From IMG/VR virus record IMGVR_UViG_3300017971_000295, positions 308 to 64,307 of that record: a stretch of DNA of 64,000 nucleotides, one strand, 5' to 3'. The notes under the pieces are model-generated. The model worked only from the letters and a program-made list of their open reading frames with translations. It made no database searches and was not told where the DNA came from. The position numbers were made by a program, and so were the translations under genes. The DNA comes from a virus (Duplodnaviria; Caudoviricetes). Positions 43,966-54,388 of this stretch are shown here, piece after piece (position 1 is the stretch's first letter; every line of letters starts with the position of its first letter).

Positions 43966-44442
43966 ATGAAACGATTGCTTGTTATATTAATATTGTTATG
44001 TGCGTCCGTTGCTTTTGCGGCTCCCCCTGGAACCGTGTCAAAGGGGGATATTGTATATCCTATCAGCAAAAAGACATTCTCTGCACGTAAAACAGGTGTT
44101 GAAATCACCACCGACACGACATTAACTGAAAATCAATGTTTGTCAACGTATATTACCAATCAGGGCGCATCCGGTGAGGTAGATATAACTTTAGATGATT
44201 TGTCATATCGTGTTGCGGTTATGTTTATTGTGGAAGAGGAACAGGTCATTGAGATAAATCCGCCAAGTGGGGAAGCGTTTGACTTAAACGGTACGGCTTT
44301 GGATGCCAATGATTGTGTGGATTCTGATACAACTGTGGGTTCAAAGATTATGGCTGTTCGCATGAAAAACGCTTCCGGTACGTGGGTTTGGAGTCTTGAT
44401 TCTATAAGAGGAGCGTGGGTTGATACCGGTGCTTCGGATTAA
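43966..44442 (+). CDS. Signal-peptide protein with fibre adaptor-like domain
   Basis: MKRLLVILILLCASVAFA|AP; mature part resembles the C-terminal domain of 47904..51347. Confidence 0.7.
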   Translation: MKRLLVILILLCASVAFAAPPGTVSKGDIVYPISKKTFSARKTGVEITTDTTLTENQCLSTYITNQGASGEVDITLDDLSYRVAVMFIVEEEQVIEINPPSGEAFDLNGTALDANDCVDSDTTVGSKIMAVRMKNASGTWVWSLDSIRGAWVDTGASD

Positions 44443-44452
44443 GGGGGATATA

Positions 44453-44995
44453 ATGAAAAAGATATTTCTTTCAATTATTTTGCTGTTTTTGTTTTCCGCT
44501 TTCGCACATGCTGGACAGTTCCATTTATTTTTTATCGCACAGCAGACCGCAGACAAACCGGCCGAGGGTTACTCGTGTTGGGTGATCAATTCCGGTGGTC
44601 AGGAATACTATTTTGCCGAACACGGCGTTGAAATGCCGGAGGGTTACACGGTTAGACGGGCTTATTTGTTAGCTTCGTCTGGTGCTAATGATATGATCTA
44701 TTATTTTACGAGAAACGCACAGGCGGCACAGATCGGCAGCGTAGCCACAGAATATGCCGGTGGTAGCAAGACCACAACGTCAGCAGCCTGGGTTGATTTT
44801 ACTTTCAGAAGCTATGAACAGGTCGGAATTCACTCAGGATTTCCGGCAGGGGCAGCGGCCAGACTGGTATTAAACGCTTCATGGAAAGAAGAAGGCGAGT
44901 GGGTTTTCGGAACCGCTGGCGATTGGAAAACAGCGGGATTTCCGGCTGATTCAGCCACAGTAAATATCGGGATGCAAATTCTTGGAGCAGATTGA
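44453..44995 (+). CDS. Signal-peptide protein
   Basis: MKKIFLSIILLFLFSAFAHA|GQ. Confidence 0.7.
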   Translation: MKKIFLSIILLFLFSAFAHAGQFHLFFIAQQTADKPAEGYSCWVINSGGQEYYFAEHGVEMPEGYTVRRAYLLASSGANDMIYYFTRNAQAAQIGSVATEYAGGSKTTTSAAWVDFTFRSYEQVGIHSGFPAGAAARLVLNASWKEEGEWVFGTAGDWKTAGFPADSATVNIGMQILGAD

Positions 44996-51347: not shown

Positions 51348-51799
51348 TGAAAAAACTAATTTTATTTCTTTTTATTTTAATTCCTGTTTTCGCAATGGCA
51401 GGACAGGTAAGAGACATCCCCAACAATAAAGAAATTGTATTTGGTGATCCTACTAATCACACCTATGAGTTGGTTAGTATTAAATACAGCCAGGATTCAA
51501 ACAACTTTGCGGAAATTATATTTTATGTGATTTCCTCTTCGGGGAAAAGATTAAACAAACACAGAATCAGAATTCAAAACGCGTTGGACAACCCAAACTC
51601 TATTGCGGAAAATTGTACGGGTGAGGGTGAACCTTGGCCGCTTTGTACTGGAGAAGGGACTTGTGCGAATAACTGCGATGAATCCACTTCGGATTTTACG
51701 GACTTTGTTCAAGGTTACATTTCAACTGTTTTAACCCGTACTGATGCTGCTGTCGGAGCCTTTATCAATGAACACTATCCTACGCAAGATCGTCCTTAG
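51347..51799 (+). CDS. Signal-peptide protein with Cys-rich loop
   Basis: MKKLILFLFILIPVFAMA|GQ; CTGEGEPWPLCTGEGTCANNC. Confidence 0.7.
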   Translation: MKKLILFLFILIPVFAMAGQVRDIPNNKEIVFGDPTNHTYELVSIKYSQDSNNFAEIIFYVISSSGKRLNKHRIRIQNALDNPNSIAENCTGEGEPWPLCTGEGTCANNCDESTSDFTDFVQGYISTVLTRTDAAVGAFINEHYPTQDRP

Positions 51800-52439
51800 T
51801 ATTTTAATTCTATCCATACCTTTGTTGTGTCATGCGAGAATGTCATGTCTTCATTGGGGTGGTGGTACGGAAGAATCTTCACTGACCTGTTCGTCTGATG
51901 AGGATTTTACAGATGTTTCTGTCGACGCTCAGTGGGTGTTTGGGAGATATGCAACTGAAGCCGCGGCAGGCTGGGAAGTTCCCGCAGGATTGTCCGGAAC
52001 TGATGTCTGTGAAATGATCCTACAGTTAACGGAAGCGGTTGGGGATATACAAGCAACTGGTTATGGTGGTGGTCCAAAGCTTTATTATGTTTCTTTTTAT
52101 ACGTTAGATGGCAATTATGATTTAGATACGGAGTTATGCAGATCAGAGGCCATAAATGGAAGTAACTGGAACCATACCGATGTTACCTGGGATGGTGGGG
52201 ATTTTGACGGTGGATGCGATATTTCGAGTGCCGATGTCTGGATAATTTACATGGATGACGATAACAATCCAGATGATTTCGATATTGATGGATCAAATGC
52301 TGCGGCCATCCTATATGATAACGAAGGTGGTGGGAAAAGCGTTGACCGATATTTTTTTTCCACAGCAGGTGCTTCAGAAGGTGATGGACCATCCGATGAT
52401 AACGATGACCCTTATATGAAACTATCTACAATGCAATGA
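51768..52439 (+). CDS. Signal-peptide acidic beta-sandwich-like protein
   Basis: MNTILRKIVLSILILSIPLLCHA|RM; Asp-rich. Confidence 0.7.
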   Translation: MNTILRKIVLSILILSIPLLCHARMSCLHWGGGTEESSLTCSSDEDFTDVSVDAQWVFGRYATEAAAGWEVPAGLSGTDVCEMILQLTEAVGDIQATGYGGGPKLYYVSFYTLDGNYDLDTELCRSEAINGSNWNHTDVTWDGGDFDGGCDISSADVWIIYMDDDNNPDDFDIDGSNAAAILYDNEGGGKSVDRYFFSTAGASEGDGPSDDNDDPYMKLSTMQ

Positions 52440-54388
52440 AAAAAATAATTTTATTAATATTACTGTTTCCTTCTTTGGTATTTGCCGGAACTGCCTATTA
52501 TGTTGATTTGGATGCTGGTTCGTCAGGAACCGGGACATACGCCTCCCCTTGGAATAAAATTAGTGATGTTGAAGGAGCAGGGTTGTCTGCTGGCGATGAT
52601 GTTTATTTCAAGCATGGAACAAGCAATGCCGATGGCAATCAGGAGGACTTTGATGTAACTTGGGCATCTTCAAAAGAAGATCCAGTTGTAATTGGATGCT
52701 ATGATGGTGATGGGGATTTTGATTGTACGGGGAGAACTTTACCAATTATTGACGGTGATACCCATAATATCGGTTTAGTTGATATTTATGATTCTCTTAT
52801 CATGATTAATGGAAGCAACGGGGCTTCTGGTGGTTACTATACTGTGCAAGATCTTGACTTCCGCAATTCAGGATGGAACGCAGTTACGATAGATGATTGC
52901 GGGGATTATAATACAATTCAGCGGTGTAAAGCTGATTACCAAAATGGAAATACATTCGTTCTGAGTGAGGTTCAGCATTCTACTGTAGATAATAATACTG
53001 TAACTCGCTCCAGTTATGGAGGCCAAAGAAGAAATCATCCTGACTATTGTTATGCCGGGGATGGAGATAATTGTTCAGATTCAGAAGCCTGTCCATATGG
53101 GTGTTGGGGTTGGGGAGGAGCAGCAATTACCGTAATTGATGGCAACAATAATGAGACGGGAACTCTTTATAATACTGTTAGCAATAATAGTGTATCTGGA
53201 GGATATGAAGGTATAGGGGCATATATGGGAGGTAGCTATACAATCATAGAGAACAATAAGGTATTTGATAATCGTTCTTATCATATATACATGGGTAATT
53301 CTACTCACAATATTGTAAGAGGAAATCTTGTTTTTGAAAGTGATGCTGACCCAGACAATAACGATGCAGGAATATTTATAGGATGTGAATCTTGGGAATC
53401 TTGGCCCCTGAAGGTCAATGGAAGCAACGAAGTTTATAACAATTTTGTTGTGGGGATGCGTTGGGGAATTACAATGACTTCAAGTTGTTATGAAACTTCT
53501 AGCGAGGCACCCGTAAGTAATAACAAGGTTTATAACAACACTATTATCGATTGTACAGAATATAACATTCGTCTTGCAAAAACCGGTGGAGCTTCGGGAA
53601 ATGTTATCAAAAATAATATCAGTTGGATTTTAAATAGGGGCGGAAGTCATATTACTGGATGTTCTGATGGCAGTGTAACATGGGCAGACAATCTTTGGGA
53701 CACAGACCCTGGAAGTGGGGGTTGTGATTCTGGCACGGACCCCGCAAACGAAGATCCCCAGTTATCAAAAACAAATTGGTCTTCTATAACAACGTCTCTT
53801 GATGAAACCGATTTTCATTTTACCTCAAGTGGTTCTCCTGGCGTGGGTGACGGGGGGGATTTGGGAGATGGTTGTGTTGATTGGTCGGGTTATTGTGATC
53901 AAGATTATCTTGGAACCGACAGAGATCCCACATGGGATTGTGGTGGTTATCAGCTAACTGCCAGTGGGGATAAGGTTGTTACGATTACTGCATCAGATGA
54001 CACGGCCACAGAATCAGGCCCGACTACAGGTGAATTCACCATTTCATGTTCTCCCAATTGCGCCTCAGAATCGATTAATTGGTCACTATCAGGGTCTTCC
54101 GCAACAATTGATACCGATTATAATATGGACGATGAAGACGGTGTCAGTAGCTTTTCAGGTGCTTCTACCACAATTACAGTAACACCTGTAGACGATGACG
54201 ATATAGAAAACAATGAAACGGTTTTAATTACCTTACAAACTGGAACGGGGTACACTATAGGAAGTCCTTCATCCGCCTACGTAACCATCGTTTCGGATGA
54301 CGTTGCGGATGTGTCCAATACAATATCATTTGATGGTTCAACGACTTTTACTCAGGGTGGATCAAATACTTTAGACTTTACGGATTAA
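52436..54388 (+). CDS. Signal-peptide right-handed beta-helix protein with C-terminal Calx-beta domain
   Basis: MKKIILLILLFPSLVFA|GT; YYVD...GT.ASPW cap, NN rungs; VTPVDDDDIENNETVLITL...YTIG.PSSA.VTI.SDD. Confidence 0.8.
   Translation: MKKIILLILLFPSLVFAGTAYYVDLDAGSSGTGTYASPWNKISDVEGAGLSAGDDVYFKHGTSNADGNQEDFDVTWASSKEDPVVIGCYDGDGDFDCTGRTLPIIDGDTHNIGLVDIYDSLIMINGSNGASGGYYTVQDLDFRNSGWNAVTIDDCGDYNTIQRCKADYQNGNTFVLSEVQHSTVDNNTVTRSSYGGQRRNHPDYCYAGDGDNCSDSEACPYGCWGWGGAAITVIDGNNNETGTLYNTVSNNSVSGGYEGIGAYMGGSYTIIENNKVFDNRSYHIYMGNSTHNIVRGNLVFESDADPDNNDAGIFIGCESWESWPLKVNGSNEVYNNFVVGMRWGITMTSSCYETSSEAPVSNNKVYNNTIIDCTEYNIRLAKTGGASGNVIKNNISWILNRGGSHITGCSDGSVTWADNLWDTDPGSGGCDSGTDPANEDPQLSKTNWSSITTSLDETDFHFTSSGSPGVGDGGDLGDGCVDWSGYCDQDYLGTDRDPTWDCGGYQLTASGDKVVTITASDDTATESGPTTGEFTISCSPNCASESINWSLSGSSATIDTDYNMDDEDGVSSFSGASTTITVTPVDDDDIENNETVLITLQTGTGYTIGSPSSAYVTIVSDDVADVSNTISFDGSTTFTQGGSNTLDFTD

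Follow-up and report, generated by a model that had tools for sequence, protein, structure and literature searches.

Sec-type signals on all seven fibre-slot proteins of a podovirus-like phage suggest host-recognition proteins that mature outside the cytoplasm

Why should every protein encoded in the tail-fibre slot of a phage begin like a secreted protein, when to our knowledge no tailed phage builds virion parts outside the cytoplasm and no report of exported phage tail fibres was found in the literature? The question is raised by a cluster of seven ORFs (43966-54388) in an uncultured, podovirus-like contig (completeness 89%), of which a stretch of 64,000 nucleotides, here called the window, was analysed. 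The cluster occupies the tail-fibre slot at the end of the late operon, with the gene of an internal virion protein of 2177 aa on one side and a holin-like gene on the other, and the signals on all seven products suggest host-recognition proteins that mature outside the cytoplasm. The first-pass annotation had gone further and proposed that the subunits dock onto virions after export, with non-virion adhesins or decoys as its alternative. Of this proposal, the cleavable-Sec-like signals, their modular nature in relatives, the fibre position and the fibre-type or glycan-active bodies of several products stand. The docking is doubtful, given a secreted beta-helix family, lipoprotein relatives, the candidate signal-less binders 22945 and 30645 and the lack of a shared module, and a free or envelope-bound role, and with it the adhesin or decoy alternative, appears at least as likely.

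All seven ORFs start with ATG and encode a basic, hydrophobic N-terminus with a small-x-small site, and their translations match the Sec-type N-termini that had been described; the tight linkage noted at the same time (overlaps or gaps below 30 nt) was measured as -32 to +26 nt to the preceding stop. A rule that demands a net positive charge, a best 10-residue Kyte-Doolittle mean of >=2.5 in a stretch that starts within the first 12 residues, and a pair of small residues at -3/-1 flagged 7 of the 7 cluster ORFs as one unbroken run. Across the whole window 14 of 81 ORFs (>=60 aa) were flagged, and the control background amounts to 20 of 727 ORFs (2.8%) in 51 viral loci. None of the 16 tabulated ORFs in the structural region 15457-43964 was flagged, including 22945, 30645 and 43539, which had rightly been called signal-less. 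The seven segments are short, rich in Leu, Ile and Phe, and reach a best 10-residue hydropathy of 2.9 to 3.9. Judged from sequence, the seven N-termini thus look like genuine cleavable Sec signals, and since the flagged run stands out against the background, no better start was found and signal-less homologs begin at the mature end, the products are likely exported, a view that rests on the heuristic rule and on alignments. The mature chains contain, in gene order, 2, 1, 11, 11, 4, 6 and 18 cysteines by crude cleavage sites, those of 44995 and 51768 falling inside the hydrophobic segment, so that each of these two counts includes one signal cysteine.

Two different fates of the exported chains can be imagined, namely that (i) they act free or bound to the envelope, which we tentatively prefer; or (ii) they become parts of the virion, which seems possible yet doubtful. 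In the first case, the uncultured podovirus would encode in these seven genes a distal module for host-glycan recognition, which would be transcribed along with the late structural genes and whose products would all be Sec pre-proteins. Late in infection the chains would pass through the inner membrane of the host and be cut by signal peptidase I directly ahead of the conserved mature N-terminus, and folding would take place in the periplasm with disulfides wherever cysteines exist; the chains would meet the outside and the cytoplasmic particles only once the holin-like product breaches the inner membrane. Soluble or associated with the envelope, a set of two long, lectin-like chains of fibre type, one beta-helix polysaccharide lyase or hydrolase and four small accessory proteins would then bind and cut surface polysaccharide of the host at the lysing cell and in its surroundings. 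Capsule or matrix could be cleared, or receptors on debris masked, so that progeny would not be trapped, and attachment to the virion would not be needed. In the second case, the fibre chains from 47904 and from 44995 with 44453, perhaps all seven, would be the receptor binders of the particle. They might take the Sec route, be cut, form disulfides in the periplasm and dock with their new N-termini on finished fibreless particles, conceivably in the first seconds once the holin has opened the inner membrane, or else in the lysate.

The gene pair 44453 and 44995 informs both possibilities. The 180-aa pre-protein (44453..44995, + strand; signal end AHA/G, the slash marking the predicted cut) has an alpha/beta fold and is the partner of the 960-aa fibre pre-protein (44995..47877, + strand; CFA/A), a fibre- or spike-type glycan-binding chain. 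The former belongs to a family with 13 representatives among 1.84 billion proteins; its AF2 model (pLDDT 88, pTM 0.80) gave no match in a fold search, the top Z being 4.0. The larger protein has 26 homologs, 9 of them flagged with a signal, its family is present in 52 viral loci, and a precomputed CBM_4_9 annotation stands on 6 of the 26 listed homologs. Its family profile (positions 90-219) matches residues 119-252 of the head spike fibre Rcc01080 of the Rhodobacter capsulatus GTA (PDB 6tb9) at E=2.1e-13, a likeness of one domain only; this GTA protein is not known to have a signal.

The first-pass annotation had left to be checked whether homologous fibres keep or lose the signal. In the 180-aa family it is found on 11 of 13 distinct aligned members, and signal-less homologs of this protein, the other 2 members, as well as those of the 960-aa protein start at the predicted mature N-terminus. 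The two homologs adjoin each other in three loci, both bearing the signal in L004 and both lacking it in L008 and L014. The signal thus appears to be a module, present or absent jointly in both genes of the homologous pairs in other phages. On a tree of 16 fibre-family members it needs 5 changes, at least 2 of which are forced by well-supported branches, and because of these changes the same fibre body would serve in both modes. In other phages signal-less orthologs occupy this kind of slot and presumably serve as virion fibres; the two forms of the 960-aa family do not differ in cysteine content (0.53 vs 0.50 per 100 residues, p=0.34). The tree and the shared slot speak for virion parts, and the slot and the equal cysteine content count against a free fate.

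The 1147-aa pre-protein (47904..51347, + strand; SFG/A) is a repeat-built chain of tail-fibre type. It shares modules with 636 proteins, and the accessions on its matches include PF12789, PF18454 and PF13884, which we take to be Phage tail repeat, Mtd_N and Peptidase_S74, respectively; homologs were found in 9 viral loci. The fibre motifs that had been pointed out in the larger chains are genuine, and relatives conserve them. In the 1147-aa protein the mature N-terminus aligns in register with the N-termini of signal-less fibres, a widespread fibre motif, and those of the signal-bearing fibres of L068 and L073 likewise align residue for residue with signal-less phage fibre starts. Such a motif, kept in register after a cleavage site, would more readily make sense if the freed N-terminus still had a docking target, and it speaks for virion parts, as does its occurrence in 44 of 81 signal-less matches. 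Of 39 signal-bearing relatives only 4 keep the motif, which speaks against virion parts.

For the 119 relatives listed for this protein, the median cysteine content is 0.73 Cys per 100 residues in those with a signal (n=38) and 0.00 in those without (n=81; Mann-Whitney p=3.3e-16). Of 120 proteins, 18 have the C-x2-G-x-C motif; 16 of these are flagged, and the remaining 2 have a late hydrophobic segment. Together, this enrichment and the motif in signal-bearing relatives point to extracytoplasmic chemistry. As to the paired cysteines that had been claimed for the larger chains, 47904 indeed has three C-x2-G-x-C motifs, and the other chains are described here by cysteine counts. Lipoboxes are present on 4 of the 120 relatives, one being the fibre-slot protein of L067.

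The last protein of the cluster speaks for a free or envelope-bound fate. The right-handed beta-helix reported for the 650-aa pre-protein (52436..54388, + strand; VFA/G), of polysaccharide lyase or hydrolase type, is confirmed by Pfam Beta_helix (E=8.4e-11) and by fold, with a further NosD match (E=4.7e-6). The Calx-beta motif reported alongside finds a match in the C-terminal part, which stays below threshold (E=0.006, 17 bits vs a cut-off of 27). Residues 20-420 of the AF2 model are good and the C-terminal part is poor; Foldseek gave 136 PDB matches at E<=0.001, headed by GH136, PL6 chondroitinase B and alginate lyases, and phage tailspikes (Det7, HK620 and KP32gp38) rank lower than secreted bacterial lyases and glycosidases. 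With secreted beta-helix enzymes such as PL6 chondroitinase B, alginate lyases, GH136 lacto-N-biosidase and Vibrio RbmB it shares fold and signal, but the identity is 10 to 15%, and 52436 is phage-encoded and lies beside fibre genes. The signal rule flags 27 of 38 family members, and 8 further ones have the same hydrophobic stretch directly ahead of the conserved mature motif; one member lies among glycosyltransferase-like genes, a polysaccharide cluster, on the Desulfosarcina variabilis chromosome. The family therefore seems to be nearly always secreted, natively and also in bacteria, which argues against virion parts.

The small pre-proteins are less informative. The 158-aa product of 43966..44442 (+ strand; AFA/A) is a small phage-type beta-sandwich whose nearest Atlas cluster is 98% viral (0.96) and which resembles part of a Phage_tail_fib/Gp53-like_C protein (TM 0.60 by query). 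Neither it nor the 150-aa product of 51347..51799 (+ strand; AMA/G; 4 cysteines) nor the acidic 223-aa product of 51768..52439 (+ strand; CHA/R; 19% D+E; 6 cysteines counted, one inside the signal) matched a Pfam or PHROG family.

Upstream, the signal-less internal virion (ejection) protein of 2177 aa (36991..43524, + strand; phrog_11358, E=1e-19; phrog_22591) has 0 cysteines and an ART-PolyVal match below cut-off (E=8e-5), and with its gene the series of cytoplasmic virion genes comes to an end. It is followed, just ahead of the cluster, by a signal-less 141-aa protein (43539..43964, + strand), a predicted viral-type beta-sandwich with viral nearest Atlas clusters (0.95) and one weak family lead, Bbp16 (0.79). 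In L067, a homolog of the internal protein (36% over 228 aa) precedes a lipoprotein-type fibre in the same slot, which again is at odds with virion parts. Runs of >=2 flagged ORFs occur in 10 of 61 other viral loci, most of them adjoining or including a fibre homolog. In favour of virion parts, the run proteins of L072 and L073 match the PHROG tail spike, tail protein and tail fiber families, and in L069, a backbone relative with a 30645-like protein of only 241 aa, the fibre-like genes seen after the internal proteins are all signal-bearing, which counts against a free fate.

The slot itself, between internal virion proteins and a holin-like gene in the late operon, is that of podovirus tail fibres and tailspikes, which follow the internal virion proteins and precede a small membrane protein. 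The likeness extends to repeat-built bodies, to the N-terminal motif that 47904 shares with its signal-less relatives, and to a glycan-active-type beta-helix protein as in tailspikes. The cluster differs in its Sec-type signals on all seven proteins and in its cysteines, neither of which is known from studied podovirus fibres. The slot speaks for virion parts, and we know of no late operon whose fibre slot holds 10.4 kb of genes for non-virion proteins, which counts against a free fate. Docking finds no partner, and BLAST of cytoplasmic against exported proteins gave no shared module at E<0.05. Moreover, 30645 (conserved N-terminal 178 aa, variable C-terminus) and 22945 could be signal-less candidates for adsorption or receptor binding.

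A free or envelope-bound fate is thus suggested by the signal-bearing beta-helix family with its Desulfosarcina member and secreted-lyase folds, by the lipobox relatives and by these signal-less candidates. It is further suggested by bacteria that export phage-fibre-like adhesins. Bdellovibrio bacteriovorus has 21 mosaic adhesive trimer (MAT) fibres, each with a signal peptide and 13 of 21 ending in an S74 domain; they are phage-tail-fibre-like adhesins that are exported and act outside the cytoplasm, and in them the signal leads into a conserved N-terminal domain, whereas the tips vary (Caulton et al., 2024, PMC10769870). MAT genes are chromosomal genes of a predatory bacterium, whereas the cluster belongs to a phage late operon, and unlike in the MATs, Pfam detects no S74 domain in the seven proteins. 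Phage genes with Sec signal peptides have been described for Porphyromonas phages and read as an adaptation to the host secretion system; the paper names capsid, spanin and unknown genes and does not contain the term 'tail fiber' (Matrishin et al., 2023, PMC10367356).

An improbable third explanation is that the N-termini are uncleaved anchors, tethering the chains to the inner membrane until depolarisation or rupture and thereby timing release or assembly, as in signal-arrest-release endolysins. A hydrophobic N-terminus by itself is no proof of cleavage, and the R that follows CHA in 51768 is a poor +1 residue. However, signal-arrest-release segments are Gly/Ala-rich and weakly hydrophobic, whereas the cluster has short, strongly hydrophobic ones, each with a small-x-small site behind it, and in signal-less homologs the conserved mature block begins right after that site.

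Still less probable are lysogenic-conversion adhesins, expressed from a prophage to alter the lysogen surface with no role for the lytic particle. The distal ends of late operons are common sites of accessory genes for secreted or membrane proteins, and the window encodes Erf-family and YqaJ recombinases, as do many temperate phages. However, no integrase or repressor was seen among the scanned ORFs, and the overlapping or abutting starts suggest co-translation with late genes. A search of 185,579 species genomes with the A1 profile and the patterns used gave no relative, and in the phylum of the Desulfosarcina genome 7 of 401 genomes gave only partial domain matches. Between 43524 and 54388 no promoter or terminator of the cluster's own, as typical of accessory 'moron' genes, was found, and the + strand has no terminator-like site with a convincing stem there, which also counts against a free fate.

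That the signals are an artefact of misplaced starts or a chance pattern is very improbable: although they were called by a heuristic rule and 47904 and 52436 lack a clear Shine-Dalgarno sequence, seven consecutive ORFs are flagged against the low background, homologs from other contigs keep the segments in kind, not in sequence, and the downstream starts, a caveat raised in the first-pass annotation, would leave gaps of 50 to 110 nt encoding in-frame signal peptides by chance, with no Shine-Dalgarno-like sequence at any in-frame start just behind the seven segments.

The operon ends with a 68-aa protein (54393..54599, + strand) with one C-terminal hydrophobic segment, which matched no Pfam or PHROG family and is inferred to be holin-like from size and position; small genes also trail the signal runs in L004 and L070, where the N-termini were viewed. 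Promoter-like sites total 37 against a shuffle expectation of 38.0, and the best one of the region, with an 11/12 match (54643..54671, + strand), is the probable start of the next transcription unit.

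All seven consecutive ORFs starting at 43966, 44453, 44995, 47904, 51347, 51768 and 52436 (span 43966-54388) open with a signal-like N-terminus, and their translations confirm the description given in the first-pass annotation: K or R occurs among the first seven residues in each of them, the best 10-residue hydropathy ranges from 2.85 to 3.93, and putative cleavage sites follow, in ORF order AFA, AHA, CFA, SFG, AMA, CHA and VFA. The Sec SPI pattern, that is a positive n-region, an h-region of about 7-15 residues and small residues at -3 and -1, is thus present in 7/7, and the term signal peptide is used here for our own rule (net positive charge, a 10-residue Kyte-Doolittle mean of >=2.5 starting within 12 residues, small residues at -3/-1; ORFs that comply are called flagged) together with comparative evidence. 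A lipobox with Cys at +1, as used by signal peptidase II, occurs in none of the seven. Each gene starts with ATG at -32 to +26 nt from the previous stop, four of them behind a GGAG/GGGG-like sequence, and a check for true starts downstream of the hydrophobic segments returned no such in-frame start with a GGAG/GGGG-like sequence.

The rule flags the seven as one unbroken run and 14 of the 81 window ORFs of >=60 aa; the background rate in 51 viral loci without such runs is 20/727 ORFs (2.8%). Four of the other flagged window ORFs lie directly downstream of the seven, namely 54945 and 56325, with the lipoboxes LVG↓C and MTS↓C, respectively, as well as 55703 and 56839. That the upstream fibres (22945, 30645) and 43539 lack signals, as had been proposed, also stands: 0/16 tabulated ORFs of the structural region 15457-43964, these three included, are flagged. 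From these sequence features and the comparative evidence below, we consider it likely that the seven proteins are exported via Sec. Apart from the late and lysis region, a convincing signal is present only in a 133-aa early-region protein (7739-8140, + strand), which combines a textbook signal (AMA↓Q) with a strong Shine-Dalgarno sequence.

The source IMG/VR record comprises 64,307 bases, of which the window covers nearly all, at a CheckV completeness of 89. PHROG matches identify a portal (16996, E=3.9e-23), a major head protein (21918, E=7.2e-14), a 'head closure' protein (32332, phrog_578, E=1.5e-31; its PDB sequence search gave a single weak match, E=0.015), a DNA-ejection protein (34447, E=1.2e-11) and an internal-virion-type protein of 2177 aa (36991-43524). 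The closest cultured relatives of the portal are podoviruses (18 matching records), with 41% identity to an Alcaligenes phage and about 30% to Pelagibacter and Roseobacter phages; 44995, 47904 and 52436 have no match among 50,697 deposited phage records and consequently no cultured relative there. The seven genes are placed between the 2177-aa protein and the holin-like gene 54393, which is the distal tail position of a structural late operon. No convincing terminator was found on the + strand within 43524-54388, and the top promoter-like site of the region (54643-54671, score 11 of 12) lies behind 54393, so that the seven genes would close the late operon. The 68-aa product of 54393 has one hydrophobic segment, at its C-terminus, and the gene occupies what we take, from T7-like gene order, to be the holin position.

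Further features of this genome can be listed. The internal virion protein contains zero cysteines in 2177 residues, and its residues 853-973 (about 39500-40000) show an ART-PolyVal (ADP-ribosyltransferase) match below cut-off (E=8e-5, 23.9 vs 31.2 bits). Sugar-modifying genes lie between the head and tail genes (23898-28647, + strand); one product is methyltransferase-like and another is a nucleotide-sugar epimerase (phrog_540, E=5e-89) with 66% identity to L008:13440-14468 from a phage with a signal-less fibre pair. No tRNA genes were found in the window, and searches for related loci with 44995 and the C-terminus of 36991 as single proteins returned nothing.

In the families of the 960-aa (44995), 180-aa (44453) and 1147-aa (47904) proteins, alignments identify the signal as a dispensable N-terminal extension. 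The 960-aa protein has 26 homologs at E<=0.001, of which nine are flagged, all within the best 15, and the unflagged homologs P0002 and P0007 begin at the conserved block that in others succeeds the predicted cleavage site; the proteins of the viral loci L009 and L014 likewise lack the signal and begin at the mature N-terminus. In the 180-aa family, which has 13 representatives in 1.84 billion proteins, the signal is present in 11 of 13 distinct aligned members, and those without it, P0192 (the same as the L008 protein) and the L014 protein, start at the mature N-terminus as well. In L004, L008 and L014, the 180-aa gene immediately precedes the gene of the fibre homolog; both proteins of the pair carry the signal in L004, and both are without it in L008 and L014. 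A profile of the 960-aa family matched 52 IMG/VR loci, in 48 of them inside an ORF; the matched ORF is flagged in three (L004, L006, L007), and exactly these three also have flagged neighbours, in the patterns SSS[S]SS, S-S[S]S and SS[S] (S, flagged; brackets, matched ORF).

Sixteen members of the 960-aa family were placed on a tree after stripping the first 35 residues from every row and leaving out P0014 to P0026 (partial-domain matches) and the 2499-aa L008 protein. The signal label needs five changes on this tree, a count that is soft because 9/13 inner branches are unresolved; the well-supported branches force at least two, and one supported pair (97/98) unites a signal-bearing and a signal-less protein. 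Judged by these branches, the signal is predicted to have been gained or lost more than once. Cysteine content does not differ between the signal forms of this family (0.53 vs 0.50 per 100 residues, p=0.34), and cysteine enrichment as a general mark of signal-bearing forms is accordingly rejected. Prediction of a complex between residues 21-245 of the 960-aa protein and the mature 180-aa protein, based on their family alignments A1 and A3, scored 0.00 and is evidence for neither side.

The modules of 47904 are common to 636 proteins, and precomputed families on these matches include PF12789, PF18454 and PF13884, presumably the phage tail repeat, the Mtd N-terminal domain and the S74 peptidase. 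Among the matches listed, 39/120 are flagged. The mature N-termini of 47904 and of the signal-bearing fibres of L068 and L073 are in register, residue by residue, with the very first positions of signal-less fibres, such that the signal replaces the initiator Met of the latter. A loose pattern for this N-terminal motif is found in 44/81 signal-less vs 4/39 signal-bearing matches listed, and most signal-bearing relatives therefore have other N-termini. Median cysteine content among the listed relatives is 0.73 per 100 residues in signal-bearing proteins (n=38) compared to 0.00 in signal-less ones (n=81; p=3.3e-16), and the motif C-x2-G-x-C, of which 47904 has three copies, is found in 18/120, 16 of them flagged and the remaining two with a hydrophobic segment behind a longer N-terminus.

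Nine IMG/VR loci carry 47904 modules, and the matched ORF is flagged in eight; in the ninth, L067, the ORF was called from an upstream start, and the database protein taken as its counterpart (P0099) opens with a lipobox signal. Most of these loci contain runs or clusters of flagged ORFs (6/22 in L072, 7/13 in L073), and several of the flagged proteins have PHROG matches to tail spike, tail protein or tail fiber families. One of them, L069, is a relative of the window in its backbone (28960, 44%; 32332, 43%; first 178 residues of 30645, 45%) and has two signal-bearing fibre genes after the internal proteins. The resemblance of 30645-31943 (+ strand) to the 241-aa L069:1511-2236 is restricted to those 178 residues, beyond which the two proteins diverge; such an arrangement of conserved anchor and variable tip would be in keeping with a fibre that has no signal or with a tail protein that carries an add-on. 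PDB sequence searches with 47904, 30645 and 22945 found nothing.

The beta-helix proposed for 52436 (650 aa) was borne out by a Pfam Beta_helix match (E=8.4e-11) and a right-handed fold in a model that is good over residues 20-420. Foldseek returned 136 PDB matches at E<=0.001, led by GH136, PL6 and related enzymes (E=8e-8 to 1e-6) at 10 to 15% sequence identity; the matches comprise GH136 lacto-N-biosidases, PL6 chondroitinase B, alginate lyases, and rhamnogalacturonan and pectate lyases, with phage tailspikes lower. The Calx-beta match (PF03160) to residues 555-622 has E=0.006 and 17 bits vs a cut-off of 27, in a part of the model with pLDDT <50. Within the family, 27/38 members are flagged and eight more have the same hydrophobic stretch ahead of the conserved mature motif, so the family is, by this measure, almost always predicted to be signal-bearing. 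One signal-bearing relative (L054:9953-11545) is encoded in the Desulfosarcina variabilis chromosome beside glycosyltransferase-like neighbours and looks like a predicted periplasmic polysaccharide-pathway enzyme; its surroundings are low in GC (36%) and rich in glycosyltransferase-like and membrane proteins.

Regarding the small proteins, 43966 was likened to small viral beta-sandwich proteins and to part of a tail-fibre protein. The structure model of 44453 is confident, but Foldseek matched it to nothing in PDB or BFVD at E<=0.001. The best hit of a wide VIA-align search (Z 4.0) is a generic alpha/beta arrangement, and a new fold is not claimed. 51347 and 51768 are cysteine-rich (about 3 per 100 residues) and had no relatives in the libraries searched.

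The question arises what these proteins would do after export. As in virion fibres and spikes, there are fibre-type modules in 47904, a match to the GTA head spike in the 44995 family and a beta-helix in 52436, whereas signal-like N-termini on 7/7 depart from the signal-less, cytoplasmic assembly of such fibres. From our point of view, there is a nearly even chance that the seven act free or bound to the envelope. Such a role would agree with the natively secreted beta-helix family, found also in a bacterial polysaccharide cluster, with the lipoprotein forms that a related phage has in the same slot, and with the presence of two signal-less candidate binders, 30645 and 22945, in the window itself. 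Docking of the exported chains on virions is doubtful by comparison: it is without any precedent, and no docking module was detected by BLASTP, an all-vs-all search of 30 window proteins (E<0.05) for a module common to cytoplasmic and exported proteins having yielded only the 28960/29911 paralogy and one chance-level match. In its favour, however, the genes occupy the fibre slot, which elsewhere holds signal-less orthologs, 47904 preserves the N-terminal register, and bodies have been interchanged between signal-bearing and signal-less modes.

One could further speculate, as an unlikely extension of docking, that this phage and many uncultured ones, differing in their tails, build the host-recognition apparatus outside the cytoplasm. 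Fibres and accessory proteins would then cross by Sec, be trimmed to an N-terminus identical to that of cytoplasmic fibres, form disulfide bonds in the periplasm and join finished, fibreless particles only after the holin opens the inner membrane. If true, a tailed phage would have an assembly line that spans two compartments. Speculative pay-offs would be tougher fibres, glycanases that do not meet the sugar precursors of the cytoplasm prematurely, and concealment of the fibres from immune sensors there. Signal-arrest-release segments are weakly hydrophobic, rich in Gly/Ala/Ser and without a cleavage site, and anchors of this type appear improbable for the seven, whose segments are Leu/Ile/Phe-rich with a hydropathy of 2.85 to 3.93 and lead into small-x-small sites.

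To our knowledge, the textbook account places tailed-phage morphogenesis wholly in the cytoplasm. If fibre modules are exported, either virions are finished across two compartments or fibre-like lectins and glycanases are routinely shipped into the envelope of the dying cell, and either outcome would be new phage biology. Host-range prediction would be affected, because standard cytoplasmic expression would leave receptor-binding proteins that have signals and disulfides misfolded. The matter is likewise relevant to annotating viral dark matter and to the way in which phages handle capsule and matrix at release. The signal-bearing and signal-less versions of one gene pair represent a natural experiment.

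In the literature searched, no description was found of tailed phages that export their tail fibres via Sec. Phage-fibre-like adhesins exported by bacteria are known from the Bdellovibrio MAT fibres, in which a conserved N-terminal domain of roughly 130 aa comes after the signal peptide (PMC10769870); these are chromosomal genes of a predatory bacterium, whereas the window, a virus record, encodes portal, capsid and ejection proteins. Signal peptides have been noted on some phage genes, but not on tail fibres (PMC10367356), and a further report concerns a membrane protein of a contractile injection system and not fibres (PMC13266070). What the window adds is a signal that is jointly present or absent in a conserved gene pair, a cleavage-site register shared with signal-less fibres, a cysteine contrast in one family and none in another, and signals on the distal module only, as opposed to the upstream structural ORFs.

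As to the host, the A1 profile of the 960-aa family found no relative among the genome contigs searched, and partial domain matches in seven of 401 genomes from the phylum to which the Desulfosarcina genome belongs. One of these matches lies on the 6.5-kb contig G243:C88 (L057/L064), which has three consecutive signal-bearing ORFs of 157, 510 and 113 aa; the 510-aa ORF, in the middle, is the one that matches the 960-aa family. The contig is binned with a genome from that phylum and is too short to separate a prophage from a mis-binned phage. We draw no host from these matches.

Downstream of the seven, 54945-55694 (+ strand) encodes a ClpP-family protease with a lipoprotein signal, predicted to face the periplasm, which is unusual in a phage. 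It seems to begin another transcription unit behind its own promoter-like site, and its single viral relative (49%; L075:5860-7326), where two such genes with signals stand in tandem ahead of membrane proteins, is not beside signal-bearing fibres; 54945 is treated as a module separate from the exported fibres. The window ORFs scanned yielded no endolysin domain. Four more small genes with N-terminal hydrophobic segments follow at 55703-57214 (+ strand), namely 55703, 56325, 56839 and 56993, none with a Pfam family, and this stretch may be a lysis cassette with spanin- or holin-like proteins.
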